DNA of 64,000 nt from Psammoneis japonica (GCA_008632985.1 QPGO01000130.1:62001-126000); one strand, 5' to 3'; counted from the first letter of the stretch, positions 23,201-53,610 are shown. Numbers and translations: made by a program. Notes: generated by a model from the letters alone, not told the origin.

Positions 23201-23633
23201 GCATCTAGCACTGCGATGCTACAAAGATGTACAAGACCGCATTCATAACATCTGGTGTAGACGCCACCTGTTGGTTCAGGCAGAAGAGGCGTCAAGGGGA
23301 CGTGGAGACGTGCAATGGTTAACCAGTTTTGGAGGCGACGGCGGCGAAGCAAATGGAAAAAGCTTTCGACCAGTTTAATGTACGTTTGAAATAAAAAAGA
23401 AAGTGCAGCACTTCTATAGCTACGCAATGCAACCGATGGGTAAAGAAGCACAGCCTTGGCGGGAACTGATGACCTGACACATCGTCTTCTCCAATGCCCT
23501 TGTCTCTTTCTACCGCCAAAGACTGATTCAATGCTGCTTCAAGGTGTGGCTGAATCATGTCAGGCATAAGACTACCGCCACGAGAAAGATCGCCAGTGAC
23601 AACACCCCGTACTTCCCTCTTTAGCTTTATCCT

Positions 23634-29200: not shown

Positions 29201-29747
29201 AAAGCACCGTCAATGTTTTATTCATTTCTAGCGCTTTTCCAATGGCCATGGCACCCTCGTCTCCAATGGAATTGTTGCCGAGATGAAACACCATCATTGT
29301 TCTATTCGTTTCTAGTGCTTTTCCAATGGCTGCGGCACCCTGGTCTCCAATTGAATTGCAGCCGATATAAAGCCTCACCAATGTTGTATTCATTTCTAGT
29401 GCTTTTCCAATGGCCGTGGCACCCTCATTTCCAATGGAATTGCCGCCGAGATAAAGCACCATCAATGTTTTATTCATTTCTAGCGCTTTTCCAATGGCCA
29501 TGGCACCCTCGTCTCCAATGGAATTGTTGTCGAGATCCAGCACCATCAATGTTGTGTTCGTTTCTAGTGCTTTTCCAATGGCCACGGCACCCTTGGCTCG
29601 AATGGACTTGTTTTCGAGATAAAGCTCCGTCAATGTTGGATCATTTTCTTGGAAGCGACGAATGCTCTCTTGGTAATCTAGGGACAAAACGCGGAACCAA
29701 GGCGCTGACATGTCAATGCTGCTGCTGGAACTTGCCGACTGTCCCAT
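26211..29747 (-). CDS. LRR-ROC-COR-TIR (ROCO family) protein with N-myristoylation motif
   Basis: MGQSASS start; six 28-aa RI-type LRRs (L.L.NNSIGDEGA.AIGKALE.N); P-loop GDGEAGKTS; YDCGGQ; SKVD; COR; CHCC..CPMC; TIR VFLSHRGIDTK...LSPRFRESDYCVMEL. Confidence 0.92.
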   Translation of the reverse strand: MGQSASSSSSIDMSAPWFRVLSLDYQESIRRFQENDPTLTELYLENKSIRAKGAVAIGKALETNTTLMVLDLDNNSIGDEGAMAIGKALEMNKTLMVLYLGGNSIGNEGATAIGKALEMNTTLVRLYIGCNSIGDQGAAAIGKALETNRTMMVFHLGNNSIGDEGAMAIGKALEMNKTLTVLYLGYNSIGYEGAVAIGKTLEMKTTLTILNLENNSITRLPRSFVKLEGMCEFDVDGNPLLEPPLEIARQGLQAISRYFEAVDKGEATISRQLKTVLVGDGEAGKTSLRNAVAGRFPARTKGEEERTIYLNVEPVQIEGPEGLSDDPNTLMLYDCGGQQDYAVGQAPFMTASSLFLLIVAADKAHGDYYEEVVQRFLVLLQARAPGAVVQLVLSKVDLVSDESERKQWLEDKVHGQLQAWRDAAADREEALYGRVIPEGSKKKKPPLLRILPIVLGVSVTSESAIARAREDVSSTIFRHTQDHVEPRLSSVGTLIPKSWQDLWKFFGAILQCGADADEKALFSVASSDDAIPLGEIGNMKTTADGGETDLSAKGPYCSVATLNSLWNQFRFLHAPLADNTTFGDALGLLEARGGIFVDAGLAYLQPSFVTDLIRPLIDHTLTLEKIKSPEFDKEVKSFVKRKKIGLRQDIIDGLTDLTRSGELDALILPFLWRDSNIAQGDYQRILQMLLDSDVIFASPPNPDSSTKKNTSSRATADVLPVVLFRLQKEIPTDWEDLWPEQVPDGQEEQELRLRMYEGCPTSLTAHFAAATHVHGNCVRAWLNGAIVFAEKDRCIRSELVEKKDGEPYLAFSVRYPKDDVLWEETWGLLNGAVSFVSDEVTDHFAGLQYDVVLACHCCIRAGRRQDSHLFGWSKVTNPERRMSSHFCPMCRKNVDFRVVCTKGEAIYSKVGKAARHKVLLNQMMCRLSHFYQAQEVGHDGNHVSPSTAGERNVSNLYTQALLDGVETDVGELSMAGVTIPSSVWQVNLGGDPYVFLSHRGIDTKETIARPTHWFLSEILGLTAFFDDDSMKTGDDKMRSLMEPAHSASHAVVLLSPRFRESDYCVMELNTFMMRRSKGNLVVLPYLWKIQKVDNKFAPAVKEINCCNSRTEDPAYYLVEILWPDLIKSLKGGRQDRSDWDALSLKDKLIQYVEEHRGRQDIPAIDPSLESFVRVHKGG
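29110..29640 (-). repeat. 84-bp LRR-coding tandem array (about 6 units)
   Basis: Near-identical units containing ttctagtgcttttccaatggcc..ggcaccc. Confidence 0.9.
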
Positions 29748-29989
29748 GTTTTTGACAACGAGACTTGTTTCCAAGCAATCCAATCCCAGGCAAGCAGCGC
29801 CAGTGTCTTTTTCGTTTCACTCGATTTTATTTGCCAATTGCGCGAAGATGCGAGTCGTCCGTCCGTCACATTTGCTGGTTGCGCAGCCGCTTCTTTGCGA
29901 TGAAACTGCTCGAATGGAGCAAAAAATGACGATGCATTCAACGAGAAGAGACAGTGTCAATGATGGGGATGTGAGGGACAGTGGCACTC

Positions 29990-30341
29990 GTAAAATGGCA
30001 CAGCAATGGCGGCACAGTGCGGTGTGACAGTCAAGAGATCAAGAGTGCCGCCGGGGCATGGTGTGTTGAAAGTGTGAAAACATGCAAGATGAAGATGCAC
30101 AAAATCGAAAATGCCGGAGGAGAGACCGGCAGAAAAAAAGAAAAATGAAAGAAAGGAAGAATCTGCTCCAGCTGGCTGGCTGGAGGGCAAGTGTTTCTTT
30201 TAATTGTCGCTCCCGCCCAACCAAACTGCCCCTGCTGGTCTGGATGCAGCAAGTGCAGAAAGCAACAGGAGGGGTGTCTTGGCCACCACACACAACAAAA
30301 ATGGCACATTTTCTCCACAGAGAATGGTGGAAATGTGTGGT
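29990..30341. mobile_element. Left part of an older TA-depleted element split by the Gypsy insertion
   Basis: TA-poor sequence outside the TSD; same character resumes at 42552. Confidence 0.45.
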
Positions 30342-30345
30342 GGAG

Positions 30346-30775
30346 TGCCCTGTGCATGCACTGGGCGCTGAAAAGAAGATGTGTTGTGACTTTGTCGTTG
30401 TGAAAATTGTGAGCTAGTTTAGAGTAGAGAAAGTGGGATCGTGCGAATGGGGAATCTTGCCAAAATCCCATTCGCTCGCATTTGGATGTGTCAAATCGAT
30501 CGTGCACTCGCATTGTGGATCATGCGAATCAAGCCATCACGTGCTGTGCACGAGTGATGTCATCATGTGGAATCAGGCTGCCATCGTGGGCCAGACGACG
30601 GGCCAGTGTGCTTCACACGGATGCTCTCTCAGCATCCTTCTGGAATTGCCCAAGACCTGGAGCCACGCCCTCCTGTGGTCGTGCTTCCCAGGTGCGTGTC
30701 AACAACACTGCGTTGCCACGTGCAAGAGGCTCATGCACGGTCTTGCCGTGTTGTCCAGCAGCGAGGCATGCTGCG
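30346..30775 (-). repeat. Gypsy 3' LTR
   Basis: Aligns with 42117-42547; adjacent to the PPT. Confidence 0.9.
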
Positions 30776-30858
30776 CACTCCCCCATGATCAGGGCCGCCA
30801 AGTGACAGGATGTCTTGCTGGTGACAGGGTGCAATCTGCCGCAGATTGCAGGCATCTG

Positions 30859-33800
30859 TCAGCGCTCCGTTCTGGGTGCGCAACGTGCCGTTGTCACATG
30901 GGGCCCCACACGGACAACTCTGGCGGGTCCTGCACAGCTGTCAGAACCGCACTTAGAGGATTGTTCCTGTTTGATGAGCGCCAATTGCCCTGCGGCACAT
31001 TGATGCTCCTTGCGTTTCTGATTTTCGCGCTTGTTGTTCAAGTGGATGAGCTTCTGCTTTCTGGTTTCCACGCACTTCCACTTGGCACGAATGGATGGAA
31101 CCGCATCGCGTCCGAAGACCAATTGCATGGGACTTGCACGCGTGGTCGCATGTGCCGCAGCTCTGACAGCGAAGGCTGCTGCGGAGAGGATGCCACTCCA
31201 CAGGTCATCTTCATCCAGTTCCACATCCTGCACTGAAAAGGAACGCACCATGTCACCAAGTGTCTGGTGTGCACGTTCCACTGTGGCACTCGCCTGTGGA
31301 CTCCATTTGCTTGTGGGTTTCTTCAAAATCCCACAGTCATTTTTAATCATCTGGCCAAATTCTGCCATGAATTCTGTCCCACGGTCATGGGCCACCTGGG
31401 TTGGCCACGGACATCTGCATGGCCACGTTTGTTCCACGACGTTTGCTGCGACGTCTGCGCGTTTCGCAGACACTTCTTCAATCTTGAACCACCTGGTTGC
31501 TGGGTCAATCATTGTGACTGCCCACAATTGCAAAGTGTCCTTTCTGCGTCTTTGAATTTCACATGGCCCTGTCACATCTGTGCATGGAGTCTCCCATGGA
31601 ATTGTCTCTGCGACCTTTTCTGGCAGCTTCCCACAACGCTGCATTCGGCATTTTGTCTTCTGGCATCGATCGCACTTGACGCACGTAGAATGCACTGTAG
31701 ACCTCACACCAGGCCAGCAGAAGTGCTGGGCAACAGACATTTCCACACGTGTCTCACCTGGATGACACAGTGTCTCGTGGCACCATTCAGTTAGCGGAAC
31801 CTGCAATGACTGCGGCACTGCGATTTTGTCCTTGTGACAGATTGACTGTTGTGATGACCCTCCCCCACGACACGTGCGAATGGAGCAGTCGGACGAGTCC
31901 TCAGCTCGTGAGAGCAGGCGCTTGTCCTTTTGTTGTGCTTTTTGAATGCGCTTGAAGCCAACAGGCAGAGACACCTCATCTTGCGCGTCTGCATTAAAAG
32001 CTTCATGCAAAGGATGACTCGATGGAGTGTCTTTTACATCCGGATTGGCCTCGGAAGGCAAGCTGGGTGCTGGCCGAAGGCGACTGAGAGCGTCAGCGAC
32101 TGGGCTGTGGGTGCCCTCAACATGGCGTAATTCGGGACCGCATTTTTCGCATGTCAACCGCCAGCGCATGACGCGCTCGGCATTGAATGCTTTGCACGTG
32201 AGATTTTTATGGTCAGAACACATGATGATGCGATGACCAAGGAGAATCGTTCGAAATTCTTTCAACGTCTCCACAATGGCGAGCAATTCTCTCTCCGTTG
32301 TTGCACAATTTAGTTGCGCACTGTTGAGCTTTCTGCTGCAAAAGGCGACAGGTTTGTTGTCTTGGGACACAACTGCTCCCAATTGACATTTAGAGGCATT
32401 GGCACGCACCTCAAAGGGTTTGTTAAAATCAGGATGTGACAACAAAACATCATCCGATGTCACCCGCTCAACAGCTTCGAACGCCTCGTCTTCAATGGAC
32501 GTCCACTTCCACTTGACAGTCTCACTTGCGAGTCGTGTCAGCGGAGCCAAGACTTCAGAATGTCCAATCCACGTGTCACGGCAGTGGCTCACCACACCAA
32601 CAAATGAGCGCAAGTCGCGTTCATTGGTTGGGGTCGCGATTCGCTCAATGGCGTCAACTTTGTCAGGCATTGGTCGCGTTCCGTCTCTGTTGACCAGACA
32701 CCCAAGCACTCTAATTGGGTTTGACAGAAGTGAGATTTAGTTGCGTCAACTTTTAGCCCTGCTTTCTGGACCCTCAACAAAACTTCTTCAAGTTTGTTGA
32801 GGTGATCTTCATGGGTGCCTTTTGTCACGACGAGAAGGTCATCTGAGTGCGTTCGAATGAACGACAGATCTTCAAATGAGCCTGACATGCATTCTTGGAA
32901 AATGTCTGGTGAATTGCGTGGTCCCATGGGCAACACCTGCATCTCATGCTTGCCCCACGGGAAGATGAGCGTGCAGAGCTTCTTGCTGTCAGCATCCAAT
33001 CGGATGTGACAACAGCCCACATTTGAACCCAGCGATGCAGCCCACACAAAGCCTTCAAGCTCAAGCAGCACATCTTGGACATGAGGAATCGGATAAGGCA
33101 ATCGCTTGATCCGTTTATTCAGCTCTCTGAAATCATTGGTAAAGCGCACCGTTAAATCTTTCTTCGGTATGATGAATGATGGAGCTGCCCATTGGGATCA
33201 GTTAACGCGTTTGAGAACACCGATACGTGCTAGGCGTTCTACTTCTTTACGTAGCGTAGCTTCGTACGCACGAGGTACTTTATACGGACGAGCGTGGCAT
33301 GGTTCTACACCCTCCTTGAGTTGGATATGGTAGGGTTCTCCCTTCCATTCTCCTAATGTCCCATCAAATAAGGACTCATGGCGTTTCAATAGTGCCAAAA
33401 GGTCGTTTTGTTGAACTGTAGAAAGTCCTATTGTCTCTCGCGTTATGTCCTCGAGGCAGGCCGGCGCGTACTTAGCGTCTAAAATACGCGAAATCCGGTC
33501 GGTTTCCGAAGATAAGGCTTCTGGATCTTGAAGATAGAAGGAGGTTTCCACCGTAGCATCTACGTGCCTCATTGGTACTTCTCCATTGACTAATGGCCAC
33601 TCTATCATCTGTTTAGAGAAGACAATATCAAGGCCTTGTGTCTCCAGAATGTCACGTCCAATAATCATATCGTACTTGCCCAACTTTCCGTTGTGTACGT
33701 GGACGGTATGTTTAAGTTCTGCAGTTTCGGATAATTCTGGTAACCAAAATTTAACGGTACAGTCGTTAGACGTACTGAACGAGCCTGCTACCGTAGTCCA

Positions 33801-34073
33801 GTTTGTCTCAGCCGTTGAATGGCTTCGCAGACGTTTACAGTATCGACTGTCGAGTAGAGTACTGCTGGCGCCACTATCTAGTAGTGCCTTAATGGTTTGA
33901 GTCTTGCCCTTGCCATGTTTAGTATTCATAGCTATAAACAAGATTGGAGTAAGATGAGTCTTTTTAACTCGTTTGCGGGATTGGCCTACAACACGTGTAC
34001 GATGGTAATTCAGTTGTTCATTTATACATTCATCTAATGCATTAAAACTACCTGTGTCGTGTCGGCCACCTTC
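30859..34073 (-). pseudogene. Gypsy pol (PR-RT-RH-IN), disrupted by a TGA at 33198 and a frameshift at ~32710
   Basis: ORFs 33198..33941, 32589..33149 and 30859..32709 carry successive pol motifs. Confidence 0.9.
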
Positions 34074-34958
34074 TCAGGTGTCCGAATCTTCGGAATCACT
34101 TAAGTTGAGGTCGCGGAAGTGATTGAGCTCCTCCTCGCGTGCCTTGCGCTTTTTCTGAGCGTTGGCAAAGAACTCCTCGACCTTCGATCCGATGAGAGCA
34201 TCAATGTCTTCCTCATTCCGAGGTTTTGCATTGGGTTTGCTGCCTCCGTTGTTGGAATGTCCAGTCTCAACACGTTTCACGTGGTGCTTGAGCTGACGGC
34301 AATCCTCCGCATGATGTCCACAGTCAGTCCCGTGCAGCACACACGACTTCTGGGTGTTCCGTTGGGTCGTGATCAACGACTCAGGATTGTCCGTTCTACG
34401 TCCCCGCTTGCGTGGAACCTCAGCATGTTGGTCCAGGTTACCTTCGGCAAGCTCGACCTGCTCGATGCGCTCGCAGAACTGCACAAATTCGGCGATGGCA
34501 TGCGCCAACGGGTCAAAATTCTGCAGCGTCATGAACTTCTGCCATGCCTTCGGCACACCGCACTCGAACATGTCGCACAGTTCATCATTGGGCAATGGTG
34601 CCGGTGCTTCTCCATCCTCCGTCACGGGTGGAAACTGAGAGATGCAGCCGTTAATTTCAACAGCCCTCGCGACGCAGTCACGAGCAGAAACCTCTGCGGG
34701 CTTGCGCATGAAGCACTTCAGATGACGCTTCTGCAACAGTGCCGCCCCATGTGGGAAGATGCTTTCCTTTGGCTTCGCAACGCATGCTGTGCACGCAGCG
34801 TTGGTTTGGGATGCCTGCTTGTCAGCGGCATTGTCAAATGACGTCAGAGCATCGCCCTGCAGCAGGTCACGCATGAGGGCAAATTTTGCTGGCCCGGTCG
34901 TCATGCACGCGATCCACATTGCGCAGAAAGATTGGGAGTGTCTCGCATGTAGCCGCAG

Positions 34959-35234
34959 TGACAGAAAATGAAGGCAAATGGCAAGAATTCAAACAACAAC
35001 TCCTTGCTGCTGTCTAAATGGCAGATGAGTCTCCGCTCAGAGACCGTTGCAGGAGCCGAAAGACGTGCAAGTCGGCACAATCGGGCTGCTGTCATTGTTC
35101 TTGTGAGCCTTGTGGCTCGAAAGCAAACTGCATCGTGCGTGAACGCGCGGAACCAAAGCACACAAAACTGTGCATGGTGAGCTAAACAGCGCGCGACACT
35201 TCGCGCGCACCCAAATCCTGTTCAAATCCTGTCA
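34959..35234 (-). repeat. Copia 3' LTR
   Basis: tgacagaaaatg...aaatcctgtca; matches 41597-41872. Confidence 0.95.
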
Positions 35235-38200
35235 CTCCCCAGTTTGCTTGAGGAGCCACAGAAACAGATTCGACTTCGGATGGAATGAAGTTCCAGAACA
35301 TGAGGGGGCGGAGAAGGTCCCAGATTTGGGAGTGACCCCAATGCTTGCTGAGAATGTCAGCAGGGTTGCGGGAGCCTTCGATGAAGTGGAACTCAAGGTG
35401 ACCAGAGGCAATTGCCCCACGCACACGGTGGAACGATGGTGCGGTGTGTCGCTTGTGTAACTTGGAGTGCGGGATGGTGGCACTGTCTACAACCGACTTG
35501 TTGTCACCGAACATGCAACTGACGTCACGGATCGGGACGCCAAGGTGGGTGGCAGTGACGAACTTGCCAAGGGGTGGTGGAGCGTCCTTCGGGATCATCT
35601 CTTCTGCTTCACCATGCACGGAATGCATCCATTCACAGGCCGGAGCAGGGAGATCCGAACAGTCGGGCTCTTCCGTGCGAACGCGGAGAGCACCGTGTCG
35701 CATCTTGGAGAGGTGCCCACAGACGCGTTTGGCACGATCCAAGTGGCCTTGACGGGGCGCAGCTCGGAAGCCAGAGAGTGACATGACGGCCGTGGCAATG
35801 TCAATTCGACCAAGGGACACTGCCCATTGGAGTGAACCAACAAGAGACTGGAACTTGTGAATGCCATCGGGTCCCAGCAGTTCGGAAGTGTCCAGTTCGG
35901 GGTGGTCACCCTTCTCTAGAGGTGACAGGGCGTTGGTGGCAGGTTTCTCCCCAAACAGTCGGGCACAGCTGTCGACCATGCACTCGATGCACTTGCGCGG
36001 AGACAGGCACAAGGTTCCGTCGGGTTCCCGGGAAAAGTCGCAACCCAGATGGAACTCAATGGGTCCCGGACCCTTGAGCTTGAACTTGTGCTTTTCCGTG
36101 AGAGTGTCAACGAAAGATTGAGGGTCCTTCATGGCAATGGCGAGGTCATCCACATAAACGGCAATGCATTCACAGTGGTCGCCGTTCCTGCGCATCCAAA
36201 TGTCGGGTTCGGCACGGCAGGGGAAGAAGCCTTCAGCTCGCAGGCAGTCGGCGAAGCGCTCGTGCCAGCAGAGACCGGAGCTGCGCAGTCCACACAGTGC
36301 CTTGTGGATGACAAGGATGTGTCCTTCGAGTTTGCCGAACTCGGGTCCAGCTGCAATGTAAAGCTTCTCCTTGGTGGTGGCTTCAAGGCAGGCATTGCCA
36401 ATGTCGGTGGCCCATGTCTCCAACTCGTTGAGTTTGGCCAGGAAAATCATCAGCCGAAGGCCACGGAGGGAGACTGCTCCGGAGCAGACACTGTCGACAG
36501 GTGCGTCCGTGAGGTGCCCGTCGGCTACGAGTCGTGCCTTGTGGCGACCGTCGTGTTTCACGTCGCACACTGGGTGCACTCGGATCTTCTTGTGTCCCGC
36601 AGGAGGAGTGGAAGACTCGGAGGGCCCGCAGTCATGGAAGACTTTGCATTCCTCGAGTTGGTCCATCTTGAAACCAGTTGCGTCTCCCCATTTGCGGTTG
36701 CCGTTGTGTTCGTCTAGTGACATGGCGTGTTCGCAGTTCCGGGGAACTTCGTGTCCACACTTGTGGCGAGGTGCAGTGCGGAAGGAGCGAAGCTTGGCTT
36801 GGTTGGCCATGCGAAACAGCTTCTTTTGGCGCCTCGCGATGGTGCGGAACCGCTTCCAGCCATCCGTGTCGAGGAGTCCGTTCTCTCGTGCATAGATGGC
36901 ACAGGTGACGGGGTCGTCCTTGGCGATGATGGCAAGAGGCTCGGACGTGATCTCCCCACTTTCCCATTCAAGCATGATGTTGTAGCTGGAGCCTTTCCAG
37001 GTTGGGTCGTGAGGCTTCAGAGGTCCTTCGTGTGACACGATGCGTCGAAATTTCCAAACAGTGGTGTCTTCGTCTTCTTGCTCAATGTGATTCATGATGT
37101 CATTGCAGGCAAGGACTTCCTCGCATTCGTCATTGTTGACAGAGCAGACGAACTTGGTGAGCTCGGGATTGCCGTTCACTTTCCATTCGTGGTCTTCAAC
37201 GGCCTTGACGATGCGAGCTCTGTGGCGTTGTCCGTCCTCTTGTGGCTGCATGAGGAAGGTACGTCCAATGATGTCTTGCGGATCGAAAACTGGCATCTTG
37301 GGTGTCCTGATCTCCCCATCAGGAGAGTCGACGGGGTTGTCGTCATGGCGAGATTTGATGATGGGTTCAGGTGGCTCCCCATCAGGAGGATCAAGACGCA
37401 GGTTTCGAACGGCAGGATCGGGGGTAGCGGAGCGGACGTTGGACCGGCAGAGGATCTTCTGAGTCTTGTCAGATAGAATCTTGAAGGTCATCTGGTGGCC
37501 GACGTGCTCAGCAATGCCAACGAAGCGTCCACGCAACTCATGGGATTCGGACGGCCAATCGGAGTCATCGAGGTGGAAGTGCACGGGTTCCCACCAGTGA
37601 AAGCGAAGCAATGGGCTGATGTCCGGGGTGGAGCCAGTGAGAGTCTCGAGGGGCGTGCGCCAGTGGAGACGTGGGGACGCTGCATGGTTGAGCATGAAGC
37701 ACACGCACATGAGCGCCAGCAGCCATGCATGGGCGGGCGAACCAAAACGATCCATGACAGTGTTCGCCATGCGCTTCACGGTCTGGCATCGACGCTCGGC
37801 AAAGTTTTGGTGTTGCTGGTGAGGCTCACTTTGCCAGCTAGAGATGAAGAGGGCGCGTAGGATCCCGAGCACTTTGTTGCTGATCTCAACTTGAGCACGG
37901 TCGCTAATGAGTTTGGATGGGGCACCACGTTCACGGATCTGATCCTCGAGTGTGTTGACAAACTCTTTGTCCGTCTCAGTGCCGCAGACGTCAGTGACGG
38001 TAGACTCGGTGCCAACAAACAGTTGGGCGCTGGTGCAACCAGAGTCGACGGCCGGGGTGTCGGCATGAACGGTGTCAGTGGCGACAGGCTCGTTGCGGCG
38101 GTGCACATTAAGGGCGGGGTTGGGTGATTTGCAGGCCTTGCGAAGGTGTGTGCCGGTGGGCATGCGGGCGCACTGCGTGGTGCAGTCAAAAGTACGACGG

Positions 38201-40653
38201 ACCGCATCGGCAGGCAGGAAGCCAAAGTGAGGCCGAAGAGACTCGAAGGGGGGGTCCTTGGGCTGTACAGTGCGCTCCGGAGGTGGAACGTCATCGCCCT
38301 GGGGGCCAATCGCATGCAGATGACACTCGTAGAACACGTCGTCGTTCGGAATGAGGTGATCATCGAGGGCGGACGCGTGATCGGCAGACAAGGAAGCGGA
38401 CATGATGGTCTCGTTGACAACGACACGATGACGGTGGTTGCCGCATTCGTCAAACAGGTTGGCAGTGGGATCGTCCTGCAGGTCAGAGATCGCGTCGCAC
38501 CACTGGTCGTCGTCAGTGACAGAGTGATCGAGGACGGAAGGGTCCCATGTGTCATCACTGGTGAGGATGACATGGGGCAGGGTGTCCCATTCGGCGTCAG
38601 TGTAAGGTCGCATGGCAACACAAGGCAGGCCAGCCTTGACGTCAATGGGGATGACATGGCCATCAGGAGTGGCAATACGTTGCAAGCCGTTGGGCACCCT
38701 GACAGAGCGATCGTTGACATCCTGGTTGTGCCATTCGAGCTGGCCGCAGGAATGGATGGTCTTGCCCTTTCCCGTGCATGCATGCTGATGGAGGATGGCG
38801 ATGACGGGACCACGCTGGGTCTCAATAACGGCACCAGCAGTGACAATGGGGATGTCCACCAATTGATGATCGTCAATGCCCTGAACGTCGACTTGGCGAG
38901 AGGTGCGTGCAATGACGCGAACGTCGTCGCCAGCAATGCCGCCGTTGGCCCCACGATCGACTAGAGCGCCAGTGCGTGTGGAGCGATGAGCAGAGGCAGA
39001 GCAAATGACATTGTGGTTGTCAACGCGGCGGCAAGTGCGGCCGTTAAGTTCTGTGTCATCTGCAGAAGCTGGCGGGGTAGAGGAAGCGGCGGATGGCCCC
39101 GGTCGACTGGCATTGGGGGCTTGGTTAGGAGACAACAGACGTTGCAGATCACCGGGTGGCAGTGGCTTGCGCTTGGTGAGGTGCGCCAGGATGGGATCAT
39201 CCGAAGTGGCGTCCACATGTGGAGCGGAGTCACCAGAGTCAGCAGGAGTCGTGTTGGACAAGTTGACATCACCGTCACTCCCAAGGCGTTGGTCGTGAAG
39301 GTTGGCCGTAACAGACTCATGGCAGTCACTGGCTCGCGGGTTGCGGGGAGGTGGACGAGAATGCTCAAGGATGATCACCTTGGAGGAATCGGGCAACGAA
39401 TCCCAGAGCCGTTGGTGGTCGGGAGGGAGACGTCTCCATTGGACACCGGTGAGGCTGGGACCGCGGGTGCAGGCAGCATTGGCTTGAAGGACGTCAATGT
39501 CGCTGTCAATGTCGTAGAACACATCGTCGGATGGTTCCTCGGAGCAGACGTCGTGTGCGTGTGTGGCGCGTCGGGGAGCTCGAGGTGTCGTCTTGGGTTG
39601 AAACGTGCTGTCACACTGAGCTGCCGCGGAGAGGAGCAAGCCACAGTGTTGATCGCATGTGAGGCTCTTGCCACTCTGCGTACGATGCTGATCAGCTTGG
39701 TTCTTGACAGCACGGAGTTCCTCGACAGGGTGCACGGCATTCTCGAGCATGACGCGCTTCTGTCCTTCAGAGAAGTGGTCACTGGCCGGGATGAGTGCCT
39801 CGCACTTGCGCAACTGATCTTGCCAATGAAGGATGAACCCGTGGGTCGGACCTTTCCAAGTGCCATCACCAAGACGCGCGGTGGTGAGGTGCGTGAGCAG
39901 GGTGGAGGACTCGACAGATGCGCGGGTGGAGGCAAGCGCGCACTCAGACAAGGAGCGGCAGATGGTCTGTGCGTCAGAAGACCCCACATTTTCGCGAATG
40001 AGAGCCTTGCCCTTGTCGGTGAGAAGGATGCGTTCGAAGACGGCGAACATGTGCTTTTGCTGTTCAGCAAAGAGCAGTTTGTCTTCGGGGCTGGTCGGTT
40101 TGTACGACGAGTCTAGAATGCACTCGACGTCTTGGGCACGGGCTTGTGCCACAAGTGAGGTGTGCCAAGTGTGCCACTGCTTGTCGGATTTGAGCGCCGT
40201 GAAAGCGGTGGGATCACGCTTGATGCCTCGCTTGAAGTCCCGCACCGGGTCGCGTGCCTTGGTCGGGTTGGTGACATGTGGAGGTGCAAGGGGTGAGCTG
40301 CCGATGGACACAGAAGACATGTGGTCGGGGCTGAGGCGGTGGGCAAGGAACTCGTCATGCATGAACAAAGAGGAGTTGTTGGCAACGTCAAGACCTTTGT
40401 GTGCTTTGACAATGTACAGACTGACTAGTGCTGCTAACATGTTCTTGTGACCATGGGGCAAAGGGATTGCATTGGTGCCGTTGTCGCACTCAAGCGAGTC
40501 GATTTGGGACGGCATGAACGTGAATGGTTCCTGATGCGAGTCCATGCCGTCTTGGGCCAAAGCCAAACGAAGAGGACTCCCAGCACCTTGGGCAAGCACG
40601 GTTCCAACCACGTGCTCGAAACCATCGGTTTGTTGCTGACGAGTGAGAACCAT
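35182..40653 (-). CDS. Copia gag-pol polyprotein (hypermutated, RNase H core deleted, probably non-functional)
   Basis: FKRGIKRD; protease ALVDRGANGG; integrase ATDT..LISDRAQVE..SEPHQQHQNFAERR; RT DVKHDGRHKARLVA, KALCGLRSSG, YVDD; RNase H end FGDNKSVV, NPADILSK. Confidence 0.93.
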   Translation of the reverse strand: MVLTRQQQTDGFEHVVGTVLAQGAGSPLRLALAQDGMDSHQEPFTFMPSQIDSLECDNGTNAIPLPHGHKNMLAALVSLYIVKAHKGLDVANNSSLFMHDEFLAHRLSPDHMSSVSIGSSPLAPPHVTNPTKARDPVRDFKRGIKRDPTAFTALKSDKQWHTWHTSLVAQARAQDVECILDSSYKPTSPEDKLLFAEQQKHMFAVFERILLTDKGKALIRENVGSSDAQTICRSLSECALASTRASVESSTLLTHLTTARLGDGTWKGPTHGFILHWQDQLRKCEALIPASDHFSEGQKRVMLENAVHPVEELRAVKNQADQHRTQSGKSLTCDQHCGLLLSAAAQCDSTFQPKTTPRAPRRATHAHDVCSEEPSDDVFYDIDSDIDVLQANAACTRGPSLTGVQWRRLPPDHQRLWDSLPDSSKVIILEHSRPPPRNPRASDCHESVTANLHDQRLGSDGDVNLSNTTPADSGDSAPHVDATSDDPILAHLTKRKPLPPGDLQRLLSPNQAPNASRPGPSAASSTPPASADDTELNGRTCRRVDNHNVICSASAHRSTRTGALVDRGANGGIAGDDVRVIARTSRQVDVQGIDDHQLVDIPIVTAGAVIETQRGPVIAILHQHACTGKGKTIHSCGQLEWHNQDVNDRSVRVPNGLQRIATPDGHVIPIDVKAGLPCVAMRPYTDAEWDTLPHVILTSDDTWDPSVLDHSVTDDDQWCDAISDLQDDPTANLFDECGNHRHRVVVNETIMSASLSADHASALDDHLIPNDDVFYECHLHAIGPQGDDVPPPERTVQPKDPPFESLRPHFGFLPADAVRRTFDCTTQCARMPTGTHLRKACKSPNPALNVHRRNEPVATDTVHADTPAVDSGCTSAQLFVGTESTVTDVCGTETDKEFVNTLEDQIRERGAPSKLISDRAQVEISNKVLGILRALFISSWQSEPHQQHQNFAERRCQTVKRMANTVMDRFGSPAHAWLLALMCVCFMLNHAASPRLHWRTPLETLTGSTPDISPLLRFHWWEPVHFHLDDSDWPSESHELRGRFVGIAEHVGHQMTFKILSDKTQKILCRSNVRSATPDPAVRNLRLDPPDGEPPEPIIKSRHDDNPVDSPDGEIRTPKMPVFDPQDIIGRTFLMQPQEDGQRHRARIVKAVEDHEWKVNGNPELTKFVCSVNNDECEEVLACNDIMNHIEQEDEDTTVWKFRRIVSHEGPLKPHDPTWKGSSYNIMLEWESGEITSEPLAIIAKDDPVTCAIYARENGLLDTDGWKRFRTIARRQKKLFRMANQAKLRSFRTAPRHKCGHEVPRNCEHAMSLDEHNGNRKWGDATGFKMDQLEECKVFHDCGPSESSTPPAGHKKIRVHPVCDVKHDGRHKARLVADGHLTDAPVDSVCSGAVSLRGLRLMIFLAKLNELETWATDIGNACLEATTKEKLYIAAGPEFGKLEGHILVIHKALCGLRSSGLCWHERFADCLRAEGFFPCRAEPDIWMRRNGDHCECIAVYVDDLAIAMKDPQSFVDTLTEKHKFKLKGPGPIEFHLGCDFSREPDGTLCLSPRKCIECMVDSCARLFGEKPATNALSPLEKGDHPELDTSELLGPDGIHKFQSLVGSLQWAVSLGRIDIATAVMSLSGFRAAPRQGHLDRAKRVCGHLSKMRHGALRVRTEEPDCSDLPAPACEWMHSVHGEAEEMIPKDAPPPLGKFVTATHLGVPIRDVSCMFGDNKSVVDSATIPHSKLHKRHTAPSFHRVRGAIASGHLEFHFIEGSRNPADILSKHWGHSQIWDLLRPLMFWNFIPSEVESVSVAPQANWGVTGFEQDLGAREVSRAV

Positions 40654-41596
40654 GGCAGACGAAAGTGGTGTCAGGACAATCAATTCTGGTTGGGAAGCGA
40701 AGGTAGACTCGAAACTTGGGTGAGAATAGACTTGACTTGAAATGGACTTGACTTGAAATCTTGAACTATCTTAAAATCAGAAGTCGCCGGGCTTTGTCAT
40801 CCCGTTCGTTGTCAAGTGCTAAACTTCCCATCCGGTCCGCAGAGTTGTGCCGGCACGTCCGAACCCGCAGCTGGTGGCGCTTTGGGTTGCTTGCGAGCGG
40901 AGTAGCGGGTTGTAAACCCCTGCAGGTAAGCTGACTAGAGGTGGACAAGACCCCCGAACCGTTCTTGTTTTATGTCGGTTGGATTTCCCGATCAGGCTGG
41001 CCAGTTGATGCAGGCGTCAGGCGCTGTGGACGAACGAACAAACGCGGGAAAGCACCCTCGCCCCAACGCAGGCTGTAATCACGGCTACCTGCTCTCACAG
41101 TCGTCCTCGTGGACCTAGTGGAACTGTAGAGCACCAGCAGTCCGGGGCAGATCAGGTGCAATGGACTCGGTGTGCTTGTAGAGTGGCAGCAAAACCGCAG
41201 TCCGAAGAGTGGATAAAGGTTCTTGGCCGTGAAGATGTGCACATATACATGTGCATGTCTTCAGCGACTAAGATCCTTGAACATGTAGGGTTCTTGACCG
41301 TTAACCGAGGAATGGGCACATCAAGGGATGTTGATCAAGGATAGACTTGGATATGACCGTTGAACGTGAGTCTTCAGCGATCAAAGGTAGTGTGATCAAT
41401 CCAGATATCCAGCGGTAAGGAGACTTGACGGTGACGTTAACTTCCTGCCGATGCCCTGGCATTGAATGCGCGTAGACTTGCCGATGTATGTAGAATGTAT
41501 ACGGAGGTCCACGTAGAATTGAAATGGCGTCGTTGGTAAATCAACGACGACGATGGCGGTTGCTCAATGGGTTGACAATGAGCAAGACTGTTAATC

Positions 41597-41872
41597 TGAC
41601 AGAAAATGAAGGCAAATGGCAAGAATTCAAACAACAACTCCTTGCTGCTGTCTAAACAGCAGATGAGTCTCCGCTCAGAGACCGTTGCAGGAGCCGAAAG
41701 ACGTGTGAGTCGGTGCAATCGGGCCACTGTTGTTGTTCTTGTGAGCCTTGTGGCTCGAAAGCAAACTACATCGCGCGTGAACGCGTGGAACTAAAGCACA
41801 CAAAACTGTGCACGGTAAACTAAACAGCGCGCGACACTTCACGCGCACCCAAATCCTGTTCAAATCCTGTCA
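41597..41872 (-). repeat. Copia 5' LTR
   Basis: Matches 34959-35234. Confidence 0.95.
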
Positions 41873-42116
41873 CGCAGAAAGGCACGGAATGCCCATCTCG
41901 TGCGTTGGACCATCCGGATCAGCAGGGTTGTTGCGCAGCTTGAACGTCTGGTGCTCGCCCTGCTGCAGCTCTTTCTTCTCCGGCCGTGCGAACGGAGTCG
42001 GCGGCTTGGTCCGCTTCTTCATGGTCATTTTAAGATTTGTCGGTCCCACCAACATTTCGCAGTTTCGTTTCTGTGGATTTCGTCACCTTGCACAACATGC
42101 GGGAGTGACATCACTG

Positions 42117-42547
42117 TGCCCTGTGCATGTGCCAGGTGCTGAAAAGAAGATGTGTTGCGACTTTGTCGTTGTGAAAATTGTGAGCCAGTTTAGAGCAGAG
42201 AAAGTGGGATCGTGCAAACAGGGAATCTTGCCAAAATCCCATTCGTTCGCATTTGGATCGCATCAAATCGATCGTGCGTTCGCATTGTGGATCGTGCGAA
42301 TCAAGCCATCACGCACTGTGCACGAGTGATGTCATCGTGTGGAATCAGGCTGCCATCGTGGGCCAGACGACGGGCCAGTGTGCTTCACACGGATGCTCTC
42401 TTGGCATCCTTCTGGAATTGCCTGAGACCCAGAGCCATGCCCTCCTGTGGCCATGCTTCCCAGGTGCGTGTCAACAATGCCACGTTGCCACGTGCAAGAG
42501 GCTCATGCACGGTCTCGCCGTGTTGCCCAGTGGCGAGGCATGCTGCA
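42117..42547 (-). repeat. Gypsy 5' LTR
   Basis: Matches 30346-30775; followed by TSD GGAG. Confidence 0.9.
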
Positions 42548-42551
42548 GGAG

Positions 42552-43550
42552 GCCAAGCAGAAAAAATGCAGTCTCAAGCAAAGCAAGTCTCACTTTGAGA
42601 TTTTTCATGTGGTGAGCTGGCAGATGAGCTTGATCTTCAGCTGAGTGATTGTCATCATTGCAGCACATGTGGCCATTGTGTGCTGCACTCTCAGGGGGGC
42701 ATGTTGCCTGTCTGAGCACACCAGAAAGGATGCACTTCAAGCACAGACAATTTTGCTCAATCACAAAATTCCTTTTTTTGTTGGTGATCATTGGCTTCTT
42801 GTGTTGACCACCACCTGAAATTTTTCTGTTGCAGGGGCTTGTGCACCACAGGAGAGCTGGGCTCAGTGTTGCACGACATCCCACCTCTGGGGCTGGAATG
42901 TGTCGGGTGTGTGGCATCATCTCAAAAATGCCTGCTGCTGCTCAGGCCCCACAAAGTGTTGGCAGAGGGGCCACACACCACCTGCCAGTGACACAAGCAT
43001 GTGTTGCTTGTGCAGGGGGCTGGCGCAGGCTTGTGCTGGCTCAGCACAGTGGCTGGCGTGGCCAGCAGCAGCCTGGCTCTTGACACCAAAGCATGACAAA
43101 ACAACATGTGAACCCACTGCTGTTGCACTTGTCTCTCCATCAACACCACTCCATGAAGAAAAAACCTGAAACCTGCAGTGGCGAGAGTGTGCGCCCCAGT
43201 GATGCGCCAGCTCTGGTGCGCACCTGGAGACACGTGGCTCAACCACTTTTTGTCAAAATGGGCCCCAAAACATGCCAGACACAAAACATCTCATTGTGGC
43301 ATTGTCATGAGGGGACAGTGGGGTTGTCAACTTGCAATGACACACCAGCGTCCCGGCGGGTCCAAGTGTCAGTGTTCTCACTGTGCAGAGCTCCGCGGCC
43401 CGCCAGACTCAGCGCTGTTCAAAAATGAGCTTGTGGCTCTCTGTGGTGCATGACAAACACACCAGCCTGTGACAGCATTTGTTGGAGATTTTCTCTGGAC
43501 AGCAACTTGTCCAAAGAACAGGTTGTGCACAGACATTCGTGTTGAAACAA
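42552..43550. mobile_element. Right part of an older TA-depleted unclassified element
   Basis: TA-free, CG-poor tract. Confidence 0.45.
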
Positions 43551-44001
43551 TCTGTAGATAAGTCAGCGACCACGGGTTTTCGATGCGCACACGCGCTTGC
43601 CTGGGCGGGGGGAGAATTTCCCAAACGCACTGGGGGACAGAACTTCTTTGGACAATTCCGTCCAGAGAAGTATTCCCCCGATCCCCGATCCCCCGATGAT
43701 GCAACGCAGAGCGAGCGAAGAGCGTCATGCGATTGTTCCTGCGACTTCCAACTTCCAACTCTTGTCTGAGTCAGTCACATGCACCATAGCACCTTTATTA
43801 TTTGCAACAGCTGGTCGAGGAAAGAAAGTCAGTCACGCCGAATAAAGAAGCTATTTTATCCATTGCAACTGATACCAGCACATATCAATTTTATATTGTG
43901 CACTGACTCAAAACGGATTTCTTTGTTTCTTCTTACGTGGTGTCAGCCAATCAAGAAACAGTCTCACAATTGACACTAACGCTCTCCCACTCCCGAATAA
44001 C

Positions 44002-45799: not shown

Positions 45800-47047
45800 T
45801 CACCAGAAGTTCCTCCTCTTTTTATTGGAGTTCTCGTTGGACCAGGGATACAGCCTTTTGAAAGTGGCTGCGGATTCGTCAGCTTCTTTGTTGCCATCTT
45901 TATCCTGGCCTTGAAAATCGAATTGCTTGCACTGTATCACCTTAAGAATGAACTTGAGTGTTTTAATCAAGCAAAGGTTTTTCTTCGTCTTATCAAGGGT
46001 GCTGAGAAGCTGGTCCAGCGAATCCTGGCAACCTTGAAGCAACGGCGTTTGCAATGATTCATCTTCTTGTTGAAAAATCTGGACAAGAAACTCCTTTGCC
46101 GGTAGACGGCTGTTTTAAGGTAGGCTTTGCAAGGTCCATTAGCTTTGAACCTTGCTTCTACATCGAGAGCACAATCGCACGTTTCTGCCTTGTACTCATT
46201 CATCCTACGCTTTACTACTCGCCCCCATTGTCCACACTCACCACAACAATCCCAATCTCGACAGGGACACTCGCCCCTGTCGGGGCCTTCGACAATGTAC
46301 GAGTCAATGCCCTCGCATTCGCAGTGCTCGCCTTTCACCCAATCATCAAAGCACAGGGTTTTCTCAGCATCCGTTGCCTCGAGAATCGAAGTCATCATTT
46401 CACAAGCTGTTTCTCGAGCCGTGGACACAGCCAACAGGCGACTGTGGGCCACGTCATCAAAGTGTGCACGCAAGACTCTGGGGAGCTTGAATTTAGAAGA
46501 AAGCGATCGCTTCACATTGGCTTCCTCTTCCAGCACCTCTGCCATTTCCTCCAGTCTACTCATCTTCTCTTTCACATCCTTGGCGAATTGAACAATCTCC
46601 TCTTTCTTCACGCTTGCCTTTTTAAATCATGCGTTGGGATCTTCTTCACCATCTGCTTGAGTTCCTTTTTGAGTTCGAGGTGAGACTTTGCACCCTCGGT
46701 GCACAAAACCTTTCCTCCGTTTTTCGTTTTGCCGCAACCGTGTCGATCAAGCTTGAGATGTTCTCAAGCCATTGCTCATTGTCACCAGAGCAGTCATCGT
46801 CATCTTGCATTTCCATGTCGAACGAACCAAGTTCGAAGGCCTCTGGAGGTGGCACGACTTTGGTGATCTCGACCGGGTTGTCGTCATGATCCTCTTCTGA
46901 TTCTACATCATTGCAGTGTGGATCATGCGATTCATGCTTTCTCTCAGCCTTGGTGGCCAACTGCTTTCTCGGGACCATGGATCCCGTGTGTTGTCGGGCA
47001 GTCTTGAACCTTGGCAACTTGCTCCTGCTGCTTCTTTTGCACATCAA
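45800..47047 (-). CDS. Unknown protein with N-terminal histone H3 tail-like motif, acidic stretch, coiled coil and Cys cluster (about 3 frameshifts)
   Basis: ORFs 46646..47047, 45967..46611 and 45800..46054 are contiguous across small indels; motif [25 protein letters not shown]. Confidence 0.6.
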
Positions 47048-47149
47048 GCTGATTCTTCCCTTGCTGGGTGGCTTTGCTGCTCTTCACAACCGTCAATTTT
47101 GTTGGCCTCACACGTTACAACACCTCCTTGTTCAGCTTCCTCCGATGTG

Positions 47150-50100
47150 CTAGCTCCAAAAGAAGAAGAGTGTGACACCAAAAACAAAACAATGACAACT
47201 GACAACGGCCGGCCGCATTTGCCGGTGTGCACGGCAAATTTGATGGTGCCGCAATGCAATGCGTGCACCGGTGCTTGTCAAAATTTGAAAAAATAAAAAA
47301 TGGTGGGACCAGGCCTGCGGGGAGCATTGACCACTTGTCTTTCTTTTTGTGGGTGTGGGTGTGTGCCGTTGCATGCTGTGTTGCCTGCACGCACGTGGGC
47401 CCTGCCGCCGGGGCCGGCATTGTGGCGGCGTGGCCACCACACCGGTGACGCGGATGACCATTGTATTTGATGTCTCATGCCATTTTTGGGGCTGTGGCAA
47501 GGTGCACGGACACTCTTTTTTTTCCAATTTATCGCCACAGTGGCGCATCGCACAAACTCACTTGTTGTTGACATGTTTTCCCAAATGTGACTGTTTCATG
47601 TAGAATTCACAATGAATTGTCTTTGTTCACAAATGATGCATTTTTCAACATGCCACGCCGGCAATCCCAATTTTTGAGAACTTTCGAGCTCTCCTGAAAA
47701 ATCGTGCCACGCACCTGTCGCAGGGAATTTGTCGATTTTTTAGGATGTCCCCACGACCTCTCATGTCCTCAATGATCATTCTGCGAATCCGAAGAATTCA
47801 TCTGCACCAAACAACCCATCCTGCTCCAAAATCTGAGGGACACACTTTCAAATTCAGACGGACTGCCCGACTGCCCGACTGCCCGACCCCCCGACTGCCC
47901 GACTCCCGACCCCGACTGCCGGACCGACACGAAAAAGTCTGCAATCACCAACCACTGAGTGGTCAATGAAAGTTTCATTAATGCACAAATGTTCATGATT
48001 GAATAAGAACATTTTGGTGTCATTTTGGCGCCACATTTTTCAAAAAAAGCGAAGATGCCCTGCTTTTTCTTTTGGGTGCACCCAAGACAAATTGACACAA
48101 TGGCAAAGGCAAATGAGGCAAAAGCAAAGGTGGTGCAAGGAGTGGTGCTGATTGCTGCCACCACAAGAAGTGCTTGTGCTGATGCCAGTGCTGAGTGGCG
48201 ATGATGACAACCAAGAAGAAGGCCCGCACACTTGAGGTTGAAAAGAGGCCCGCTTTGGGCTCAGCGTTGGAAAACAGAGATGAGTCGTCAGAGCCAATTC
48301 TGTCATTAAGATGCCAGAGAATTGCTGTCACATGCCACTTCAAAGTTCTTGGTGAGTGCACCACCCAGACAATGAAGAGTCATGGAAAAGTCACAACAGG
48401 CTGATTTTGTCACACAATCAGAAACTCAATCAAGACATGGAGGGGTGCTGAGGTTGCACTCCTCCCACATTTCATGCATGTTTGGAGTGCCAACAAAATG
48501 GCGCACTGCATGGCTGAGAATGCAGAGCTGTTGTCAAGGGCAGCAGCCACCATGGCCAGCCTCCTGTGCTTCAGCAAACGAGCTTTTGAGAAGGGTCAGA
48601 TTGCTGCAGACACACAAGAGAAAATTTGCTCAGGATTTCTCCAATGTGGCATGTGCTGTCAACCACCATTGCAAAGAATTGGGTGAGGACAGTGCAACAA
48701 AGTTAGCCATCTTGTTCCTTGCCATCAGAGGTGAGCAAGAACCAAACTGTCAAAGTGATGGTGCAGCCAAGCTGCCATGGACGATTGCGATTGCACGTGC
48801 AAACACTTTCGACTCAATTTTTGATGTGTCTTGGATTTCAGGACCTGCAGCATGAAGAAACAAAGGATCCTGTTGCTGGCAATGCTGCTGCTTGCATCCC
48901 AGAACATTGTGAAAAAACAAGATTGCTCCAACTCAACTTTCAAAAACAGCTTGGTGGGATGAAACCCACAGACACAATGCACGTGGCTGGAAAGTTGGGT
49001 GAGAAAGAGTTCTTTTTGGTGTGTCCAAGACACAAAAATGTGTGTCATGATCAAAACAGAATGCAAGAGCTTTCCTTGTTTGCAACACAGCATCATCATT
49101 GGGAGAGACAAGTTCAAGCATTCTGGAGCTCTCCAAGCACTTGAATTGATTGAGATTGCTGTTGATGTGGCAATCATCATCCAGGCACATGATGCCATTG
49201 CCAGTGCTGTTTCCATCATTTAGAATGATGCAAAGGTTAAGGCCACTTCACACTGTGAATCTTTTTGTCACTGCAAAGTCAAAAAACAGCTGGCTCAACT
49301 GCATGCTCAGGTCAAAGCGGGCTCACAAAGAGCAAGGCACAGCTTGCTGTCAAAGAGCTGTTCATTGATCAAGATCAGGAGTGGCGACACACCAATTCTG
49401 AGAGCTGCTCACTTGCAATGCAAGAAAGAAAGAGAGCTTTGTGGGGCACATCGGAAGGTCTTCAGGTGGCTCGTCCACAAACACTCCCATGTTTGTGTCA
49501 CTGAGCCTCCTCCAAATTGTGCCAAGCTGCTGGCAAGGATGAATGCTGAAGGCTTTGTTGAATTTCATTGAGTTTGTTTCAAGGACAAAGCAATGCAGAA
49601 ACAGACAAAAATTGAACAAACATGACAATGTCACAGATGTTGGTCTCTTCTCACTTCTTTTTCTTTTTTCAATGTGACAACAATGGGGTGCTGGGGTGCC
49701 AAATTCATTTGTGAGGAGAGAAACCACAAGTCACAATGTTGCTTTATGCTGTGCCATCCAACCATCAGTTGTCTCTCGTTCATCTCTTTGCAAAACCTGA
49801 ACAAAACTTGTGTTTGCATCTCTGGAGTTAAAAATTCAGTCATGAGAAACTTGAGTTGCAGTGGAAAACAACCATGAGTTGAACCACATTGTCTGCTGTC
49901 TGCACCAACCATTGGGGGGCTGCATGGCAACTGTGTTCACATCTCCTCTGTCTTGACAGGAAAACCATGCATTTTGCAGATTCAGTCTCACAATCACCTG
50001 AGCAGTGACAGCAGAAGATGCCACAGATTTGCCATTGCAAGTCATTGGTCATTCCAAGATCTGACAACATGAATTGGTTGTGTCAGTCCTGTGAATGGGA

Positions 50101-53411: not shown

Positions 53412-53610
53412 TGTTATTTCTGTTCTAAGGACACAAAGCAAAACAGTTAGAGACAACGAACAGCGAAAGTATACAACATTGTCAGAATCAGTCTTGTCAC
53501 ACCTACATCTGTTCTTTTTATGGCAACTTGATTGAAAGGAGAGTCGCATATTCAATCACGAGAGAGCAACGAGGTGAGCAATACTGCCGTAACGTATGAT
53601 CCTACTAGAA

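Follow-up and report, generated by a model that had tools for sequence, protein, structure and literature searches.

TpA-depleted, nested LTR retrotransposons in Psammoneis japonica: probable post-integration A:T>G:C hypermutation at TpA

In a 64,000-nucleotide stretch of DNA from Psammoneis japonica (GCA_008632985.1, QPGO01000130.1:62001-126000; hereafter the window, with positions counted from its first letter), a Gypsy-type long terminal repeat (LTR) retrotransposon at 30346-42547 and a Copia-type element nested inside it have lost nearly all of their TpA dinucleotides. The evidence makes it very probable that both elements, as well as older repeats, underwent A:T>G:C hypermutation at TpA, acting on the DNA after integration. 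In the process proposed, either strand would be targeted, such that TA becomes TG or CA; a converted site would no longer be a target, and the process would end once TA is exhausted. Slower decay of CpG to TpG or CpA would follow, leaving relics that lack both TA and CG and are rich in TG and CA. Targeting would be of silenced chromatin or foreign DNA, by region rather than of repeats as such, and may be guided by chromatin or small RNA. The same signature is described in the text of a 2026 preprint on Bigelowiella natans (Mettrop et al., bioRxiv 10.64898/2026.01.13.699255), and the process is taken, by analogy, to be of the same kind, namely targeted hypermutation of silenced or foreign DNA. 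A preliminary description of the region, made from its sequence alone, had treated this as a candidate undescribed system; that view has been overtaken by this preprint.

Across 30346-42547, TA occurs 177 times, with an observed/expected (obs/exp) ratio of 0.28 for the dinucleotide, whereas CG stands at 0.90, TG at 1.34 and CA at 1.47. Decay of CpG therefore fails to explain the pattern, a point already made in the preliminary description. When two TA-normal islands are set aside, the Gypsy and Copia elements contain 70 TA in 10,369 nt (6.8 per kb), compared with 847 in 22,122 nt (38.3 per kb) in three stretches of host genes, 107 in 1,741 nt (61.5 per kb) in the two islands pooled and 83 in 16,207 nt (5.1 per kb) in the older blocks. 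Islands excepted, most 250-nt windows inside both elements hold zero to three TA, and these young elements have a TA obs/exp of about 0.1 while that of CG is still about 0.9. The GC content is 0.52-0.60 inside the elements versus about 0.48 in host DNA, and AA shows no depletion, with an obs/exp of 0.9-1.4 along the elements. Host genes have a TA obs/exp of about 0.5-0.7 and a tyrosine content of 2.5-3.2%. These values bear out the original observation that TA is nearly absent and CG abundant in the nested elements. However, the depletion reaches beyond the Gypsy and Copia elements: nine segments with a TA obs/exp below 0.3 together make up about 31 kb of the window, and by Pfam, tblastn and composition within the window these segments are transposons or unrecognizable repeats. 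Neighboring host genes are largely spared, as had been described, although low TA continues to the left of the Gypsy element for about 650 nt.

The direction of change can be read from the proteins. All seven of the altered peptides first pointed out (KALCG, GNACLE, AERRC, FCSRKL, VGCCHI, WCHE, and THSDD) are encoded by the region's minus strand, and the consensus of 20 homologues at three Copia sites is KALYG, GNAYLE, and AERRY, in agreement with the tyrosine expected there. A search with the Copia protein found 1219 homologues at E 1e-10 or better, 120 of which were listed. Residues in the Copia frame are 0.5% Tyr, 2.9% Cys, and 5.2% His, whereas the medians of the 120 listed homologues are 3.9, 1.0, and 3.5%, respectively, with at least 3.0% Tyr even in the lowest. 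The sum of the three residues is nearly equal (8.6 in the Copia frame and 8.4 in the listed homologues). Conserved-Tyr columns were defined from the first 40 listed homologues longer than 1800 residues, of which at least 70% had to have Tyr. At the 47 such columns, the Copia element has Cys in 22, His in 14, Tyr in 6, Phe in 4, and Trp in 1, while six control homologues have zero or one Cys and zero to two His at 48-50 columns. Among 852 conserved Copia columns, 721 are unchanged and 131 changed, and 95 of the changed columns require one base change. These 95 include 45 TA>TG/CA changes, seven A>G changes in other contexts and one T>C before C; thus, A>G or T>C in a single step accounts for 53 columns, 45 of them at TpA, and one A>G follows A. 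The L>P and V>A replacements that had also been listed are present, but they are minor (two each among the 131 changed columns).

The Gypsy element was compared with 25 of 150 listed representatives, chosen because their match is a single long one. Its RNase H-integrase frame of 625 residues lacks Tyr altogether, compared with 2.4-4.8% in the 25 homologues, and six conserved Tyr columns in this part have become Cys (five) or His (one), whereas eight controls retain four to six of the six. No in-frame stop can result from TA>TG/CA, so conserved Tyr can turn into Cys or His without closing a reading frame, and the Copia frame indeed continues uninterrupted for 1862 codons. The suggestion that the repeats are inactivated by missense load is therefore upheld. 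The base before the Tyr codon gives no signal for the Cys or His outcome, with a purine at 9 of the 14 His sites and 11 of the 22 Cys sites.

The timing of these changes can be judged from the LTR pairs. The two LTRs of one insertion are identical at integration. The Gypsy LTRs differ at 38 bases over 431 columns, including 11 TG/CA doublets (22 bases), two TA/CA differences, 10 CG/(TG or CA) differences and four others. The Copia LTRs differ at 18 bases over 276 columns, including five TG/CA doublets (10 bases), three TA/(TG or CA), four CG/(TG or CA) and one other. Except for alignment-end effects, all mismatches are transitions, and each LTR carries a clean TG or a clean CA at each site. 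From the alignments, a TG/CA doublet is taken to reflect one ancestral TA that was converted independently in the two LTRs, on opposite strands; the CpG rate predicts at most about 0.6 such doublets in the Gypsy pair and about 0.1 in the Copia pair. By estimate, each Gypsy LTR has undergone conversion at 0.92 of its TA and 0.20 of its CpG, and each Copia LTR at 0.77 and 0.11, respectively; other mismatches affect 4 of 431 and 1 of 276 columns. The nested position of the Copia element indicates that it is the younger of the two, and its values are the lower ones on every measure, as expected if decay progresses after insertion. Relative to other LTR sites, the hazard at TA is about 540-fold for Gypsy and about 800-fold for Copia, both being rough values given four and one background mismatches, and TA is lost roughly 10 times faster than CpG.

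A decayed gene copy provides a third line of evidence. In a self-comparison, 49176-49608, which lies in a block without TA and CG, matches a TA-normal gene at 53004-53456, and the region of this intact gene serves as a proxy for the ancestor. In a 787-column alignment, the 31 TA of the intact copy correspond in the decayed copy to 1 TA, 10 CA, 9 TG, and 7 AA, and its 37 CG correspond to 1 CG, 13 TG, and 12 CA. For comparison, the decayed copy retains 22 of 38 TG and 36 of 57 CA; it also bears insertions and deletions. That only one of the two copies was hit argues against a trigger by repeat pairing, as in the repeat-induced point mutation (RIP) of fungi, with the caveat that selection may have shielded the working copy. 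The intact region contains an open reading frame (ORF) at 52917-53555 on the minus strand, for which the match to a Ricin-B-like Pfam family is weak and below the cut-off. Taken together, the tyrosine columns, the LTR doublets and the decayed gene copy indicate an A:T>G:C transition at TpA, at the DNA level, on either strand and after insertion, and the A>G at TpA on either strand that was first proposed agrees with all of them, including the 22 Cys and 14 His columns and the 45 TpA changes.

The older blocks have lost CG as well as TA, and CpG decay is the second, slower layer that accounts for this loss. Among 131 ORFs of at least 75 amino acids in the TA/CG-less blocks, Pfam gave four weak matches and none above the curated cut-offs. 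The block at 5301-13800 has faint remains of a Copia reverse transcriptase at 8114-9408 (weak tblastn matches, E 1.2e-7 to 7e-4). In the right flank of the Gypsy element, 250-nt windows over 42501-43500 contain no TA, and the CG obs/exp is 0.12-0.40.

The surviving TA dinucleotides are not random. In trinucleotide densities pooled over both strands, TAT/ATA falls from 21.1 per kb in host genes to 0.7 per kb in the depleted elements, TAC/GTA from 22.7 to 3.6, TAA/TTA from 16.1 to 4.4, and TAG/CTA from 16.7 to 4.8. Loss is thus fullest at TAT, then TAC, then TAA/TAG, an order that may equally be read as an effect of the base two positions upstream of the A; the base preceding Tyr codons, described above, does not tell these two readings apart. 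The two TA-normal islands lie in the protease region of the Gypsy element and in the Copia leader. Conserved Tyr in the Gypsy protein is kept at three of three positions inside the island and at none of 13 outside (8 Cys, 3 His, and 2 other). The summed word depth of the islands in sequencing reads resembles that of the rest of each element, which indicates that the islands are not unique sequence. Local protection, gene conversion from an undamaged copy and polishing by majority vote are all possible causes; an in-frame TGA within the Gypsy island speaks weakly against a pure-consensus origin through polishing.

The low-TA left flank of the Gypsy element extends to the 5' end and first codons of a gene for an LRR-Roc-TIR protein, and may represent an older repeat or a spread of the process, comparable to RIP leakage. 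As a separate observation, a 1142-nt contig from read run X1 (depth 52.5) tracks this flank at 29792-30345, with four transitions, to the exact Gypsy boundary and then continues into other sequence. This contig may be a second haplotype without the Gypsy insertion or another copy of an old repeat.

On the minus strand, Pfam recognizes protease, RVT_1, RNase H, and integrase in the Gypsy element, the frame of which is interrupted by two internal TGA stops and, near 32700, by a frameshift. The Copia frame includes Pfam RVT_2, and tblastn with five homologues places its first residue at 40653 and follows the alignment down to 35272. About 60 residues are missing from its RNase H part (alignment columns 2004-2067). 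Positions of all features are given in Table 1.

Table 1. Positions of the nested retrotransposons, their TA-normal islands and flanks, the gene copies and the low-TA blocks within the 64-kb window.
Feature	Position	Strand	Basis or remark
Gypsy-type LTR retrotransposon, TA-depleted save one island	30346..42547	-	LTR pair, target-site duplication, Pfam
Gypsy target-site duplication GGAG, 4 bp	30342-30345 and 42548-42551		Sequence at LTR ends
Gypsy LTR, left copy	30346..30775	-	Pairs with 42117-42547
Gypsy LTR, right copy	42117..42547	-	Pairs with 30346-30775
Copia-type LTR retrotransposon nested in Gypsy	34959..41872	-	LTR pair, target-site duplication
Copia target-site duplication CGCAG, 5 bp	34954-34958 and 41873-41877		Sequence at LTR ends
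Copia LTRs	34959-35234 and 41597-41872	-	LTR pair
Copia polyprotein frame, full length, open, Tyr-depleted	35272..40653	-	tblastn, Pfam RVT_2
TA-normal island in Gypsy, protease region	33094..34060	-	TA positions
TA-normal island in Copia leader, between upstream LTR and start codon	40767..41540	-	TA positions
Left flank of Gypsy, low TA	29680..30345		3 TA in about 650 nt, CG near normal
Right flank of Gypsy, older block, TA and CG lost	42548..43800		Composition
Intact TA-normal gene region, proxy for ancestor of decayed copy	52907..53656		Self-comparison
Decayed gene copy	49074-49823		Within block 46201-52200 without TA and CG
Old block without TA and CG	5301..13800		TA 0.09, CG 0.21, TG and CA 1.84
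Old block without TA and CG	21701..23300		TA 0.11, CG 0.35
Old block without TA and CG	46201..52200		TA 0.08, CG 0.37
Low-TA block at window end	62101..64000		TA 0.17, CG 0.60

For sequencing reads, four runs of one sample (X1-X4) contain the stretch, and X1 has 0.59 of the sampled words. Contigs of X1, built from exact 31-letter words, were compared with 29700-41550, where 18,632 contigs were found (4363 at least 99% alike; longest record 315 kb). These contigs reproduce the TA-free sequence at word depths of about 52 and more. Differences between contigs and the stretch are mostly transitions (537 of 573: 137 A>G, 146 T>C, 115 G>A, and 139 C>T); every direction is represented, since differences between copies run either way, with further C>T contributed by CpG decay. 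The summed word depth is 217 in the bin at 29700-30095 outside the Gypsy element, 11,600-19,600 over most of the Gypsy element and 65,000-120,000 in the Copia interior. Although summed word depth is not copy number, these values point to the presence of many related copies. Base-calling error on modified DNA is an unlikely source of the TA-free sequence. The X1 contigs go some way toward the confirmation by reads called for in the preliminary description, although no sequencing platform is recorded for the runs, which may be data of the assembly itself.

In a metagenome scan, 78 loci encode relatives of the Copia protein, with TA obs/exp of 0.35-1.02. Fourteen of these loci were inspected, namely the six with the least TA and eight more, and they retain the conserved Tyr, with no Tyr>Cys and zero to two Tyr>His changes. 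Environmental relatives with both TA and Tyr indicate that the Copia family is not natively TA-free and that the damage is specific to this genome; the possibility raised earlier, that active family consensus sequences are themselves TA-free with Cys or His at these positions, finds no support among these relatives. The locus lowest in TA (L036, 0.35) retains 24 of 29 conserved Tyr and is therefore no clear case. Two metagenome contigs with related Copia elements (L036:1-3500 and L045:9501-11225) show partial TA loss (0.2-0.45) or flanks without TA and CG. The organisms from which they derive may share the same process, a lead only.

As to chemistry, the tentative proposal is that a deaminase, TadA/ADAT2-like or of another kind, converts the adenine of 5'-TA to hypoxanthine; no deaminase domain was found by Pfam among the ORFs of the 64-kb window. 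The main alternative chemistry, which appears unlikely, is oxidation of thymine at TpA by a TET/JBP-type dioxygenase to 5-hydroxymethyluracil or 5-formyluracil, which would pair with G and yield T>C. Because T>C on one strand is A>G on the other, all of the counts fit this chemistry equally well. Hydroxymethyluracil occurs in dinoflagellate DNA with a preference for TpA and TpC, and 5-formyluracil gives rise to A:T>G:C transitions. However, TpC would be expected to be hit too, and the sole published proposal, in the text of the B. natans preprint, is adenine deamination.

A sequencing or assembly artefact, in which a modified base at TpA is misread in silenced DNA, has little to recommend it. 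Neither the assembly nor runs X1-X4 has a recorded platform, and polishing by majority vote over many copies might restore TA locally and so produce islands. However, contigs made from exact 31-letter words reproduce the TA-free sequence, unlike noisy long reads, and each LTR has a clean TG or CA per site. Furthermore, the old blocks, with insertions and deletions and none of 131 ORFs reaching a Pfam cut-off, have the appearance of an evolutionary history, and the same signature is reported for Illumina-sequenced B. natans lines in the preprint text.

Four explanations, namely fungal RIP, RNA editing, repair by Pol eta, and native TA avoidance, each failed a direct test. The A>G errors of Pol eta follow T or A, and error-prone repair synthesis of this type (WA>WG) recruited to heterochromatin had been among the mechanisms first suggested. 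It fits poorly and is highly improbable: 45 of the 53 single-step changes are at TpA versus one A>G after A, and the AA obs/exp shows no corresponding loss. Editing of transcripts from A to I by ADAR/ADAT-like enzymes, with the edits fixed by reverse transcription, is slightly less probable again. Retroelements are the main targets here, and the enzymes prefer U before the edited A (for ADAR, according to the text of 10.64898/2026.01.13.699255). Nevertheless, editing of sense RNA would give only TA>TG on the coding strand, whereas Tyr>His makes up 14 of the 36 changes; the LTRs are copied from one template, yet they differ at 11 and five doublets; and the decayed host-gene copy and flanking DNA are also hit. 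Native TA poverty through selection on RNA or codon use, without a mutator, can practically be dismissed, since, common as moderate TA shortage is (as in the host genes here, and down to 0.35 in some relatives), conserved Tyr became Cys or His at 36 of 47 columns while the 120 listed homologues all keep at least 3.0% Tyr, the LTRs diverged at TA-derived sites after insertion, and islands in the same elements are TA-normal.

Several points weigh against hypermutation at TpA as the explanation. A TG/CA doublet may also arise from an ancestral CG, and the counter-argument is a rate estimate only; the rate ratios in turn depend on four and one background mismatches. The spectra come from one copy per family. 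The uncertain platform and provenance of the read runs count on the same side. Moreover, the two islands are sharp-edged and lie inside otherwise saturated elements. Finally, none of the 78 environmental relatives is comparably depleted, and the process may thus be narrow in range.

In our judgment there is an even chance that TpA-erasing hypermutation is a genome defence shared by, or repeatedly evolved in, distant algae (rhizarians and diatoms), which silences LTR elements to saturation without stops, acts on chromatin domains rather than repeats, follows the order TAT > TAC > TAA/TAG and leaves protected islands. If so, the protected islands could map whatever aims the process. The first report of A:T>G:C changes targeted to TpA in DNA dates from 2026 and concerns a single organism. 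A second occurrence, probably in a diatom, would show that it is no peculiarity of a single strain and would provide a second genome for the enzyme hunt. The end state is visible here, with hundreds to thousands of retrotransposon-related contigs in the reads and copies in the window disabled purely by missense. There are also consequences for annotation, as the open frames in relics lead gene callers to predict long false proteins and relics without TA and CG evade similarity searches. The TAT > TAC > TAA/TAG order and the island edges can be tested against deaminases, thymine oxidases and chromatin maps. A natural DNA adenine deaminase, if it is the true agent, would be of interest for base editing.

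Several neighboring genes have features of their own. The plus-strand gene at 54990-59311 encodes a bacterial-type UvrB (ResIII, UvrB_inter, and UvrB) fused to UvrC (GIY-YIG and UvrC RNase H) and has at least one short GT-AG intron of about 43 nt near 57854-57896. Homologues of this fusion, with 1200-1490 amino acids and the same domains, match at up to 61% identity, and all 12 that carry an organism name are at 46-53%. The named organisms (Nitzschia, Seminavis, Amphora, Cyclotella, Mayamaea, Epithemia, Cylindrotheca, Thalassiosira, Pseudo-nitzschia, and Bacillariaceae) are diatoms, and on the evidence of this one gene the genome is probably that of a diatom or a close relative. Adjoining the transposon nest, a single-exon minus-strand gene at 26211-29816 encodes the 1201-amino-acid LRR-Roc-TIR protein, which combines LRR, Roc GTPase, and TIR in an immune-receptor-like architecture; it has three database matches (best 42% identity) and a partial duplicate at 25599-25914. 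With so few matches, the proteome of this organism is taken to be absent from the collection searched, and the genome is not the annotated one of B. natans. A 2239-codon open frame at 13941-20660 on the minus strand is rich in FG-GAP repeats and has internal repeats of about 1.3 kb with about 65% identity, and 96-nt tandem repeats follow this frame at 20680-21170. Finally, three tandem copies of about 136 nt (88-94% identical) lie at 53611-53969, between the lectin-like and UvrBC genes, where gene direction switches.

Among known systems, fungal RIP is similar in that it degrades transposons by transitions in a dinucleotide context and leaves long blocks of odd composition beside normal genes. 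However, RIP changes C to T mainly at CpA, creates TpA and lowers GC, whereas here TpA is destroyed, CA and TG rise to 1.3-1.9 and GC is raised; the initial exclusion of RIP on these grounds holds. RIP also hits both copies of a duplicate, whereas here 49074-49823 is decayed and 52907-53656 intact, subject to the caveat on selection. Deamination of 5-methylcytosine at CpG likewise makes TG and CA from a palindromic pyrimidine-purine dinucleotide in silenced DNA. It explains the CG loss in the old blocks, the 10 and four CG-derived LTR differences and the 25 of 37 CG that became TG or CA in the gene copy, but it cannot remove TA, and the young elements have CG at about 0.9 with TA at about 0.1. 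APOBEC3 and ADAR similarly disable retroelements by clusters of deaminase transitions. These enzymes act on cDNA or RNA during replication and on one strand, whereas the changes here are on both strands, follow integration and extend to DNA other than retroelements. For TadA and ADAT2-ADAT3, the natural substrate is an A preceded by U, and we know of no demonstration of natural ADAT activity on nuclear repeat DNA in algae. An ADAT2 homologue is named, as a proposal only, as the candidate agent in the text on B. natans (10.64898/2026.01.13.699255).

In B. natans, according to the text of the preprint (Mettrop et al., bioRxiv 10.64898/2026.01.13.699255), 15 mutation-accumulation lines revealed T/A>C/G hypermutation of integrated viral DNA at TpA only. 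Among 302 nuclear single-nucleotide mutations, 231 fell in integrated giant virus and virophage, and 230 of these 231 were A>G or T>C; the authors place all of them at TpA. The rate was about 6e-7 in viral regions versus 3.5e-10 elsewhere, in only some of the lines, and 324 low-TpA coding sequences are enriched in reverse-transcriptase and DDE domains (10.64898/2026.01.13.699255). Literature searches on diatoms, retrotransposons, TpA, and hypermutation yielded papers on fungal RIP but no TpA-directed process besides that of B. natans and none in diatoms, and the words "diatom", "trinucleotide" and "retrotransposon" do not occur in the preprint text, supplements aside.

As far as that text goes, the likenesses are several. 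In both genomes, the changes are almost only A>G and T>C at TpA, toward TpG and CpA, and increase GC. Both processes are local and hit foreign or silenced DNA, with host genes here at a TA obs/exp of about 0.5-0.7, although the edges here are inexact (about 650 nt of the left flank). Repetition is not the trigger in either, as the giant-virus region there is single copy and one of two gene copies was hit here. Judged by the same text, the two cases also differ. B. natans is a rhizarian, whereas the host here is probably a diatom, a stramenopile, and new mutations were observed directly only in B. natans. There they arise at about 1000-fold above background; here, the LTR pairs give rough historical ratios of about 540 and 800, on four and one background mismatches. 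High-copy LTR retrotransposons are near saturation here (TA obs/exp about 0.1), while the giant-virus region there has 3.3% TpA. Beyond what the B. natans text describes, the present window adds timing from LTR pairs, the TAT > TAC > TAA/TAG order, a layer of CpG decay and TA-normal islands.

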